Source: Escherichia phage vB_Eco_F26
Sequence record: OP870145.1
Reading direction: 5' to 3' (one strand)
DNA: 64,000 bases
A program made the translations under genes and the position numbers. The notes beneath the pieces were generated by a model, which made no database searches, was not told where the DNA came from, and saw only the letters and a list, made by a program, of their open reading frames with translations. Within the stretch, counting starts at the first letter, position 1, and each line of letters begins with the position of its first letter. Positions 40,644 to 42,117 of the stretch are shown piece after piece.

Positions 40644-40719
40644 TGGTCGAGACAGTAGGGATCGAACCTACGACCTAGGACTTAGAAGGTCCTTGCTCTT
40701 CCTTCTGAGCTATGCCCCG
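40644..40719 (-). tRNA. tRNA-Arg (anticodon UCU), CCA encoded
   Basis: Hand-folded cloverleaf: 7-bp acceptor stem, T-loop GGTTCGATCC, anticodon loop CTTCTAA. Confidence 0.8.
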
Positions 40720-40723
40720 TAAT

Positions 40724-40799
40724 TGGGGTGACCGATGGGAGTCGAACCCATGACTACGAGAATCACAATCTCGAGTTCTACCAACTGAACTACGGCCAC
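40724..40799 (-). tRNA. tRNA with anticodon GUG (His-like), C73 discriminator, no encoded G-1; CCA encoded
   Basis: Hand fold: acceptor GTGGCCG/CGGTCAC, anticodon stem CGAGA/TCTCG, loop TTGTGAT. Confidence 0.65.
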
Positions 40800-40913
40800 A
40801 TTAATACCTACTCCAACAATCAAGATGTCTTCACACGAAATTAAGAGAAGAGTGATCAGTTCAACCCCTATAATCGCGTCAAGTAGATATTAATGTGACA
40901 GTTGTCACAAATT

Positions 40914-40988
40914 TGGCGGACGTGATAGGATTCGAACCTATAACCAATCGCTTAACAGGCGATCGCTCTGCCATTGAGCTACACATCC
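40914..40988 (-). tRNA. tRNA-Asn (anticodon GUU), CCA encoded
   Basis: Hand fold: acceptor GGATGTG/CACGTCC, anticodon loop CTGTTAA, G73. Confidence 0.7.
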
Positions 40989-40992
40989 AAAT

Positions 40993-41079
40993 TGGTGGGG
41001 AGTGGTGGAGTCGAACCACCCGAGTCGCAATGACAATGGATTTACAGTCCACACCGCTACCTCTACGGGATAACTCCCC
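40993..41079 (-). tRNA. tRNA-Tyr (anticodon GUA), type II long variable arm, CCA encoded
   Basis: Hand fold: acceptor GGGGAGT/ACTCCCC, anticodon loop CTGTAAA, A73. Confidence 0.7.
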
Positions 41080-41088
41080 AAATTAATT

Positions 41089-41163
41089 TGGTGGCCCTGG
41101 GTGGAATTGAACCACCATCTGGCGATTATGAGTCGCTTGCTTGAACCTTCCAGCTACAGGGCC
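41089..41163 (-). tRNA. tRNA with anticodon CAU (Met, or Ile if C34 is lysidine-modified), CCA encoded
   Basis: Hand fold: acceptor GGCCCTG/CAGGGCC, anticodon loop CTCATAA. Confidence 0.65.
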
Positions 41164-41171
41164 AAATTTTC

Positions 41172-41657
41172 TTATTTTATGTAATATTTATTTAAAAACT
41201 TTCTAGCTTGAGTATGGCTAACATTTATAGCGTTTGCATAATTTTTAATAAAACCTCGTTCATCCATATTAAAATTTTCTAATATTTTTAATCGTCTAGT
41301 TATCTCATCTTGGCTTAAGGTACTTGCATTATTTTTAGAAATTTTTTCTAAGGACTGTGCCGAGTGTTTTCGACCATTAAAATTAAAATTTTTAGATTTT
41401 GGAGGAAATCTATTATTTAGTCTCGCATCTTTTGTATTTTGATTATTAGTTGCGCAATATATGTTATTTAATGAATATGGTCCTTTATCGCCGAAACGGC
41501 ACATGCAGTATTCATGACCCTTTCTTCCACGCTTATCATATTTTCCCGTTGATTTCCACCAATGCAGCCATTCATCAAAAGTTAAATTCCATTCAATGTT
41601 TCTACGTATAGCAGAATTCCGCTGAGAAATATATTTTGCATAATCTTCTTTCATCAC
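41172..41657 (-). CDS. Putative HNH-type homing-endonuclease-like protein embedded in the tRNA cluster
   Basis: 161 aa; HEYCMCRFGDKGPYSLNNIYCATNNQN His/Cys/Asn-rich core; splits the tRNA cluster. Confidence 0.4.
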   Translation of the reverse strand: MMKEDYAKYISQRNSAIRRNIEWNLTFDEWLHWWKSTGKYDKRGRKGHEYCMCRFGDKGPYSLNNIYCATNNQNTKDARLNNRFPPKSKNFNFNGRKHSAQSLEKISKNNASTLSQDEITRRLKILENFNMDERGFIKNYANAINVSHTQARKFLNKYYIK

Positions 41658-41701
41658 AAATTTCTCTACTTATTCAATACACCAAGCTAAATCAGCAAAA
41701 C

Positions 41702-41791
41702 TGGCGGAGGCGATAGGATTTGAACCTATGAGTCGCCGGAGCGACTGCCGGTTTTCAAGACCGATGCATTAAACCACTCTGCCACGCCTCC
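41702..41791 (-). tRNA. tRNA-Ser (anticodon UGA), type II, CCA encoded
   Basis: Hand fold: acceptor GGAGGCG/CGCCTCC, anticodon loop CTTGAAA, long variable arm. Confidence 0.8.
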
Positions 41792-41793
41792 AG

Positions 41794-41867
41794 TCTCCGT
41801 GGCAGGATTTGAACCTACGACATTCTGCTCCCAAAGCAGACGCTCTACCAAACTGAGCTACACGGAG
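41794..41867 (-). tRNA. tRNA-Pro (anticodon UGG), CCA not encoded
   Basis: Hand fold: acceptor CTCCGTG/CACGGAG, anticodon loop TTTGGGA; only 2 nt separate it from tRNA-Ser. Confidence 0.75.
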
Positions 41868-41877
41868 TAAATTAAAT

Positions 41878-41951
41878 TGGAGCGGATAATGAGAATCGAA
41901 CTCACATCATCAGATTGGAAGTCTGAGGTAATACCATTATACGATATCCGC
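41878..41951 (-). tRNA. tRNA-Gly (anticodon UCC), CCA encoded
   Basis: Hand fold: acceptor GCGGATA/TATCCGC, anticodon loop CTTCCAA. Confidence 0.75.
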
Positions 41952-41956
41952 AAATT

Positions 41957-42043
41957 TGGTGCGAGAAGTGGGACTCGAACCCACAAGGAAATCATTCCGC
42001 AGCATTTTAAGTGCTGTGCCTTTACCAATTTGACCATTCTCGC
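41957..42043 (-). tRNA. tRNA-Leu (anticodon UAA), type II, CCA encoded
   Basis: Hand fold: acceptor GCGAGAA/TTCTCGC, anticodon loop CTTAAAA, long variable arm. Confidence 0.8.
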
Positions 42044-42044
42044 G

Positions 42045-42117
42045 CTGGGAATAAAGGACTCGAACCTTTGCATCTAGCAGTCAAAGTGCTATGCCTTACC
42101 AACTTGGCTAATTCCCA
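42045..42117 (-). tRNA. tRNA-Gln (anticodon UUG), CCA not encoded
   Basis: Hand fold: acceptor TGGGAAT/ATTCCCA, anticodon loop CTTTGAC. Confidence 0.75.

Follow-up and report, generated by a model that had tools for sequence, protein, structure and literature searches.

A T2-like tRNA operon of Escherichia phage vB_Eco_F26 contains a conserved structured leader RNA and a tRNA-His gene without an encoded G-1

The DNA analyzed here is a stretch of 64,000 nucleotides (nt) from Escherichia phage vB_Eco_F26 (record OP870145.1), referred to below as the window. At positions 40644 to 42117 it holds ten tRNA genes, all on the minus strand as predicted by ARAGORN over the whole window. Our main subject is a block within this cluster, between the genes for tRNA-Asn and tRNA-Arg, that consists of a tRNA-His gene (40724 to 40799) and a 114-nt spacer in front of it (40800 to 40913). 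The window comes from a Tequatrovirus and its cluster is a tRNA operon like that of phage T2. The spacer is a conserved structured RNA, supported by compensatory base changes and unannotated in the records examined, and the tRNA-His gene that follows encodes no G at position -1 (G-1).

RESULTS

A T2-type tRNA operon with an additional block

ARAGORN recovered, at the same coordinates, all ten tRNAs that a first-pass annotation made from the letters alone had folded by hand, and this automated prediction, which that annotation had named as its check, assigned no different anticodons. Escherichia phage vB_VIPECOOM01 matches 99% of the region at 97.4% identity; for T2 and T2L the identity is 95.8 to 95.9% over 88 to 91% of the query, and more than 1,100 phage records match part of the region. 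Apart from tRNA-His and the spacer, gene content, order, and strand agree with T2L (AJ880101), which has Gln, Leu, Gly, Pro, Ser, the open reading frame (ORF) trna.1, a tRNA with anticodon CAU, Tyr, Asn, Arg, trna.2, rnaD, and rnaC. The ORFs that flank the cluster match phrog_2280 and phrog_2023, and the clusters of relatives are flanked by the same genes. By identity, gene order, the downstream rnaD and rnaC, and these flanks, the region is a T2-type T-even tRNA operon.

The composition of the cluster is not a novelty. The T2L cluster was published in 2008 (Brok-Volchanskaya), and T4 SegB cuts it within the tRNA-Asn gene, which in T2L holds the site that SegB cleaves by preference (PMC2330249). 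The cluster is thus of a known kind, published except for the His module; the module is annotated in many GenBank Tequatrovirus records and the exact layout in several GenBank genomes. A difference from the T4 set, claimed in the first pass, is real. T4 (NC_000866) has the order Gln, Leu, Gly, Pro, Ser, Thr, Ile, segB, Arg, rnaD, rnaC at the same genomic position, between e.8/rnaC/rnaD and trna.2-4/ipI. Common to T4 and the window are Gln, Leu, Gly, Pro, Ser, an Ile tRNA with anticodon CAU, Arg, and the species 1 and 2 RNAs. T4 has in addition tRNA-Thr and SegB, a GIY-YIG endonuclease, but no Tyr, Asn, or His.

A conserved structured RNA precedes tRNA-His

The gap between Asn and Arg is 4 nt in T2L, whereas the window has an extra block of about 190 nt here, the spacer plus tRNA-His. 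The spacer had been described in the first pass as 113 nt long with a perfect GTGACA-gt-TGTCAC hairpin. The palindrome is present (40895 to 40908) and the length is 114 nt; in RNA sense it reads UGUGACA-AC-UGUCACA, a small hairpin of 6 to 7 base pairs (bp) at 40894 to 40909 that forms the 5' edge of the inserted module. The main feature of the spacer is not this palindrome but a larger conserved helix between the middle of the spacer and its last 13 to 14 nt. The leader RNA that this helix closes spans 40800 to 40893. Its terminal helix, of about 13 to 15 bp, pairs 40881 to 40893 with 40801 to 40813; the U at position -1 of the tRNA (U-1) is at 40800, and the last pair is A:U(-1). An inner hairpin with the loop UCUUGAU lies at about 40815 to 40829, and the interior is variable. 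The minimum free energy of the window leader is -32.7 kcal/mol (z = -4.36 against shuffles), and in every leader folded, the 5' part pairs with the last 13 to 15 nt, ending at U-1.

Comparison of 11 distinct homologous leaders supports this structure. In the terminal helix, 95% of cells are paired, and for the whole tested structure (terminal helix plus inner hairpin) the figure is 94%, which falls to 33 to 48% when the 3' partners are slid by 1 to 3 columns. Four pairs of the terminal helix have changed on both sides and four others through G:U only, and none of 500 shuffles attained the observed pairing or covariation score. The inner hairpin, with the loop UC(U/A)UGAU, also covaries. A covariance model built from the 11 leaders (R1) scores the window leader at 104 bits on the tRNA strand against 20 bits on the other strand and, together with the G:U pairs, this asymmetry indicates an RNA on the tRNA strand. 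Edwardsiella phage PEi26 retains nothing of the leader but the helix, as a hairpin of 36 nt. In CR9 and an Aeromonas phage the leader likewise ends in a helix adjoining the tRNA, as does T5 RNA III. Among tRNA-His genes of an IMG/VR sample, 6 of the 9 with U(-1) and a real spacer have 11 or more of the final 14 leader bases paired, compared with 3 of the 18 with G(-1), an association of helix and U-1 that is no more than suggestive in a small and non-independent sample. Rfam gave no match in 40800 to 40913 at E values up to 1 and ARAGORN found nothing there, so we rejected the spacer as a degenerate tRNA or a member of a known RNA family.

The leader and tRNA-His travel together in other phages. 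The module is present in about 200 phage records at 95% identity or more, and in Karamvirus, Moonvirus, and Klebsiella phages the same unit follows tRNA-Gln, not Asn. There the leaders are 84 to 92% identical or diverged, with only the UGUCACA half of the palindrome present in Karamvirus, while spacer length is kept at 95 to 118 nt among Tevenvirinae genera.

A tRNA-His with C73 and no encoded G-1

The tRNA-His reads U|GUGGCCG...CGGUCAC-C-CCA, with a 7-bp acceptor stem (G1...C72), C73, and an encoded CCA. Because the base 5' of G1 is U (window position 40800, an "a" on the plus strand), no G-1 is encoded; C73 and the missing G-1 had both been seen correctly in the first pass. The cloverleaf, the GUG anticodon, and C73 are those of a bacterial-type tRNA-His, which in E. 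coli is encoded with a G at -1. The gene of the window and eight further tRNA-His genes of named phages have T there. A by-eye check of an alternative acceptor-stem register, with G1 acting as G-1, gave no pairing.

The reviews searched regard the G-1:C73 pair as the main bacterial histidine identity element, and the exceptions that they list carry A73 (PMC9976931). We found T at -1 together with C73 in all of the named-phage tRNA-His genes checked, which come from several lineages: two Tequatrovirus relatives, a Karamvirus, a Moonvirus, a Klebsiella phage, an Aeromonas Chrysonvirus, an Edwardsiella Kanagawavirus, Cronobacter CR9 (Vequintavirinae), a mycobacteriophage, and T5. The tRNA-His of the window differs by one base from that of the Karamvirus, Moonvirus, and Klebsiella phages. 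A search of the available literature for phage tRNA-His, G-1, or U-1 found no paper that discusses phage tRNA-His.

The CAU tRNA and codon use

ARAGORN labels every CAU tRNA as Met, and the first-pass annotation had left the CAU tRNA (41089 to 41163) as Met or Ile while counting Ile as missing relative to T4. Ile is the likelier of the two. When compared with all E. coli genomes, it is closest to an annotated tRNA-Ile(CAT), at 81.6% over the full length, and closer to this than to tRNA-Met. The acceptor stem is GGCCCUG/CAGGGCC, of which GGCCCUG is shared with T4 tRNA-Ile, and it contains the C4:G69 and C5:G68 pairs of a tRNA-Ile2, which we take to be TilS determinants. This tRNA is therefore most likely a lysidine-modified tRNA-Ile2 that reads AUA, as in T4, and because it reads as tRNA-Ile2, the true difference from T4 is the loss of Thr and the gain of Tyr, Asn, and His.

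Codon use in the long ORFs of the window was compared with a 50-kb E. coli sample. AUA is 3.6 times as common in the window, which gives indirect support to a tRNA that reads it, and the other ratios are 4.0 for AGA, 2.3 for UUA, and 2.5 each for GGA and UCA, with the codons of the Leu, Gly, Ser, Ile, Arg, Gln, and Pro tRNAs enriched 1.5 to 4 times overall. The ratios for Tyr, Asn, and His codons are 1.7, 1.4, and 0.8.

The ORF between tRNA-Ser and the CAU tRNA

The first-pass annotation had correctly placed an ORF between tRNA-Ser and the CAU tRNA (41172 to 41657, minus strand) and had called it HNH-like and endonuclease-like. The ORF encodes 161 amino acids from a GTG start, or 160 from the next ATG, and corresponds to T2L trna.1 (98% protein identity) and to phrog_16521, a phrog of unknown function. 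No Pfam family matched at E values up to 1 except for one unrelated 12.8-bit hit, which leaves it outside the HNH family as Pfam defines it; a sequence search of the PDB gave no match, and homology to SegB was rejected, the best BLASTP E value against T4 SegB being 1.1. By structure, PacI is the best match for the N-terminal domain, with what appears to be an Arg in place of the canonical first His, and the C-terminal domain is a helix-turn-helix. Conservation among 16 homologues lies in an N-terminal domain of some 80 residues, in which R54, D57, G59, Y61, N65, and N74 are invariant. The C termini vary, with NUMOD3 in three, the I-TevI DNA-binding domain in two, and sigma-70 region 4 or helix-turn-helix domains in others.

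The distribution of the ORF is sporadic. At 95% identity or more it occurs in only 25 phage records, while over 800 have the cluster at an identity of at least 90%, and phage Kelasse lacks it and has tRNA-Thr in its place (Ser-Thr-CAU). Sporadic presence and modular DNA-binding domains in its homologues are what is expected of a free-standing homing endonuclease gene. "Endonuclease-like" is thus a reasonable description in view of architecture, fold, and distribution, and the ORF is reasonably regarded as a putative free-standing homing-endonuclease-like gene.

Other genes of the cluster and its neighborhood

In the direction of transcription, the cluster opens with tRNA-Gln (UUG, 42044 to 42117), which directly abuts tRNA-Leu (UAA, 41957 to 42043), followed by tRNA-Gly (UCC, 41878 to 41951), tRNA-Pro (UGG, 41793 to 41867), and, after a gap of 1 nt, tRNA-Ser (UGA, 41702 to 41791). 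Downstream of trna.1 and the CAU tRNA lie tRNA-Tyr (GUA, 40993 to 41079), which has a long variable arm, and tRNA-Asn (GUU, 40914 to 40988); tRNA-Arg (UCU, 40644 to 40719) follows tRNA-His. The Rfam tRNA model scores nine of the ten tRNAs at 59 to 74 bits (66 for tRNA-Gln, 65.1 for tRNA-His), and the sole match of tRNA-Tyr is to the related tRNA-Sec model, which gives it 35.4 bits, a score under the threshold of that family. CCA is encoded in eight of the ten, tRNA-Gln and tRNA-Pro lacking it as in T4. At the cluster's 5' end, a few nt upstream of tRNA-Gln, there is an 11-bp hairpin with extra flanking pairs (about 42120 to 42157, minus strand), a candidate counterpart of the RNase III processing site that is reported for the T4 tRNA precursor.

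Past tRNA-Arg, still on the minus strand, come a 116-amino-acid ORF that is the T2L trna.2 gene (40277 to 40627; phrog_3355 match and T2L record), rnaD or species 2 stable RNA (40160 to 40280; 110 of 118 positions identical to T4 rnaD in local alignment, and aligned to T2L rnaD as well), and rnaC or species 1 stable RNA (40014 to 40154; 136 of 140 positions identical to T2L rnaC and 136 of 139 to T4 rnaC). The start of rnaD overlaps the 3' end of trna.2. A terminator-like hairpin with a T-run, found by terminator scan at 39942 to 39965, closes the tRNA and stable-RNA unit. Beyond it, two minus-strand ORFs of 187 amino acids (38727 to 39290) and 111 amino acids (39552 to 39887) share the N-terminal motif MK(T/S)YA(E/Q)FL(T/N)EA and look like paralogues by sequence; the shorter one matches phrog_2280, and the vB_VIPECOOM01 counterpart of the longer one is annotated as phrog_2280.

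DISCUSSION

Taken as a whole, the explanation that we favor, and consider quite probable, is a T2-like tRNA operon with an imported leader and tRNA-His module, in which the leader serves as a processing cassette and trna.1 is homing-endonuclease-like. The leader and tRNA-His block is a mobile module, gained by recombination from a Karamvirus-like phage and placed between Asn and Arg, and trna.1 would have displaced tRNA-Thr as a sporadic homing-endonuclease-like gene. The operon, which runs Gln-Leu-Gly-Pro-Ser, trna.1, Ile2(CAU)-Tyr-Asn, leader, His-Arg, trna.2, rnaD, rnaC, and terminator on the minus strand, would be transcribed as polycistronic precursors that are cut by host enzymes, as is established for T4. 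Within such a precursor, the leader may fix the 5' cut of the downstream tRNA-His by ribonuclease (RNase) P, possibly after an RNase III-type cut in the leader helix, and may then persist as a small stable by-product, like RNA III in T5. A role of RNase III in T4 tRNA synthesis is the subject of a work listed as reference 48 in PMC4810235.

Several observations weigh against parts of this interpretation. The leader is not strictly tied to tRNA-His. Citrobacter phage Merlin has a second leader copy (positions 2481 to 2593 of locus L007, minus strand; 69.9 bits with R1) right after tRNA-Asn. Next to this copy come a ribosome-binding site and the start codon ATG of CPT_Merlin160 with no tRNA-His, and since it precedes an mRNA instead of tRNA-His, the leader is a self-contained cassette. 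In the Tequatrovirus Escherichia phage REP2 (positions 692 to 817 of locus L144, minus strand), the leader is kept after tRNA-Asn, tRNA-His is lost, and the leader runs into GCUGUGAACUAAUUA and then tRNA-Arg. These two phages imply that the function of the leader may be unrelated to maturation of the His 5' end. The processing and stability proposed for the leader, and the parts given to RNase III and RNase P, would follow T4 and T5 by analogy, and R1 gave no match in T5 RNA III or in rnaC/rnaD of T4 or the window at E values up to 1. We therefore rejected a relationship of the spacer to these RNAs, and the T5 analogy is one of position and terminal helix. As to the -1 base, U is also the commonest among the other tRNAs here (7 of 10), so that we discount U-1 as a special signal and regard the T itself as unremarkable, only the absence of G being notable. 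Nor is that absence a rule for all phage tRNA-His genes, as within tRNA arrays of the IMG/VR sample the -1 base is G in 28 of 45, T in 16, and C in 1. As for the trna.1 product, the canonical catalytic His is missing and no nuclease family matches its sequence significantly, and an anti-defence role for Asn and His, taken up below, would be conjecture by analogy.

Two side observations from the IMG/VR material bear on the same base. Where tRNA-His copies are isolated, and so resemble genes of hosts or attachment sites, the base at -1 is G in 30 cases and T in 1. In loci L024 to L142, many of the tRNA-His genes with T at -1, about a third of those in arrays, directly abut the preceding tRNA.

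Other readings of the spacer have to be set against these data. It might have no function of its own, being junk or a recombination scar carried along with tRNA-His, with the helix an accidental AT-rich palindrome. The interior is indeed highly variable and partly nonhomologous between genera, the ends are AT-rich (ATTAATATT / AATATTGAT), and the retention of the spacer in REP2 after the loss of His fits passive carriage. Yet compensatory changes, pairing that collapses when partners are slid and that no shuffle attained, survival of the helix as the minimal hairpin of PEi26, the second copy kept in Merlin, and a maintained length all argue against mere carriage, which we hold to be very unlikely. 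Even less credible, to the point of being highly improbable, is action at the DNA or protein level as a promoter, terminator, small ORF, or homing-endonuclease target in place of RNA structure. A weak sigma-70-like match on the plus strand (40902 to 40931, 9 of 12 positions) does overlap the palindrome, a 22-codon ATG ORF can be seen by eye on the plus strand inside the spacer, and SegB-type enzymes cut at nearby tRNA 3' ends (PMC2330249). We rejected the promoter and terminator candidates, however, since promoter-like matches in the region number 4 against 9.0 in shuffled sequence and no T-run follows the helix; the indels and nonhomologous interiors of the homologues would break any reading frame, and both the G:U pairs and the strand asymmetry speak for an RNA encoded by the strand of the tRNAs.

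It is also conceivable that the GUG tRNA is not a working histidine tRNA but a poor substrate of histidyl-tRNA synthetase (HisRS), whether it is a pseudogene in decay, diverts a host tRNA nuclease as a decoy, or is charged with another amino acid. The lack of an encoded G-1, the major bacterial histidine identity element (PMC9976931), speaks for this, as do the His codons, which the phage does not over-use, and the loss of the gene in REP2. We nonetheless think it unlikely, given a perfect cloverleaf, an anticodon loop identical to that of E. coli, and the retention of C73 and CCA. A single substitution in 76 nt across four genera, while the leader diverged, indicates strong purifying selection. 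Moreover, the T5 counterpart, also U-1/C73, appears in a table of PMC4810235 with the histidine tRNAs coded by T5, and a CUA derivative of it is described in the T5 record as an effective amber suppressor. The ORF leaves more room for doubt, and there is a substantial, if lesser, chance that trna.1 encodes no nuclease but a small DNA-binding regulator, or is the degenerate, inactive remnant of a homing endonuclease. Its N-terminal domain, however, is the conserved part of the family and is fused in relatives to NUMOD3, I-TevI DNA-binding, or sigma-70 region 4 domains in the classic nuclease plus DNA-binding layout; the ORF is as sporadic as expected of an invading mobile gene and replaces tRNA-Thr; and PacI is itself an atypical HNH enzyme. 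These features favor an endonuclease-like gene.

Why a phage should carry these tRNAs may have more than one answer. The tRNAs for Leu UUA, Gly GGA, Ser UCA, Ile AUA, Arg AGA, Gln CAA, and Pro CCA would supply codons that the AT-rich phage over-uses, an explanation that would fit Tyr, Asn, and especially His less well; codon supply is a weak reason for tRNA-His because His codons are not enriched. More plausibly, Tyr, Asn, and His would be a reserve against host defences that deplete tRNAs. They are three of the four tRNAs with GUN anticodons that colicin E5 cleaves. Phage tRNA-Tyr is shown to act against Septu and retron-Eco7, and T2 withstands a Septu system by which T4 is restricted (PMC13096335, PMC11555353). 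The Tyr/Asn/His set fits recent evidence of phage tRNAs countering defences that cleave host tRNAs.

The cluster itself is one more mosaic T-even tRNA operon, its modules shuffled by recombination and homing-type endonucleases; such shuffling is evident in REP2, where Thr and Ile of the T4 type occur beside Tyr and Asn of the T2 type. What gives the cluster value is, first, the lack of an encoded G-1 in tRNA-His, which is common to the named phages checked, and second, a leader RNA that is unannotated and has the support of covariation. The mature tRNA-His would start at G+1 or keep U-1, and no G-1:C73 pair would be possible. That the G is consistently missing in E. coli phages suggests either that the host HisRS tolerates such tRNAs in vivo or that their 5' ends are made in an unusual way. 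A bolder proposal, which we find rather unlikely, is that T-even-like, T5-like, and other virulent enterobacterial phages use a G-1-independent histidine identity by means of an unusual 5' cut directed by the leader helix or, alternatively, that tRNA and leader have a nontranslational, anti-defence role. If the former were true, a mature tRNA-His with U-1 or nothing opposite C73 would still be used by a HisRS that is thought to need G-1.

Comparison with known systems places these features in context. G-1 is likewise not encoded in the tRNA-His genes of some Alphaproteobacteria and protists (PMC9976931), but there the tRNA has A73 and a co-evolved HisRS, whereas the phage tRNA keeps C73 and must use the G-1-dependent HisRS of E. 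coli. Among endonucleases, the N-terminal domain of trna.1 has its best structural match in PacI, of the atypical HNH (beta-beta-alpha-metal) type, with no family membership at the sequence level and apparently Arg for the canonical His. With the T4 Mob and T5 Heg proteins its family shares a modular layout of nuclease plus DNA-binding domain and a sporadic presence in tRNA regions. The direct contact of Gln and Leu and the 1-nt spacing of Pro and Ser match the known dimeric precursors of T4.

The closest parallel to the leader is found in T5 (NC_005859), where endonuclease genes are scattered through the tRNA region and an annotated 106-nt stable RNA, rnaIII, abuts the 5' end of a tRNA-His that has T at -1 and C73, as in the window. 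When folded, RNA III has a 12-bp terminal helix between its 5' and 3' ends; a search of the available literature for this RNA found nothing. The tRNA coordinates in the T5 record equal those of ARAGORN except for tRNA-His, which is 1 nt longer at the 5' end, meaning that the curators placed U-1 on the tRNA and ended the stable RNA III at -2 (the stretch concerned is 10207 to 10390 of locus L012). No sequence similarity is detectable between RNA III and the T-even-type leader; the T5 record presents RNA III as a stable RNA that has been observed, and the window leader is a prediction from sequence. T4 rnaC and rnaD, both present in the window, are likewise small structured RNAs of unknown function inside a tRNA transcription unit, but they differ from the leader in sequence and in position, downstream of tRNA-Arg. 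The leader is a candidate for either a processing cassette or a small RNA that is stable, and in this it can be compared with the unexplained stable RNAs that T4 and T5 encode.

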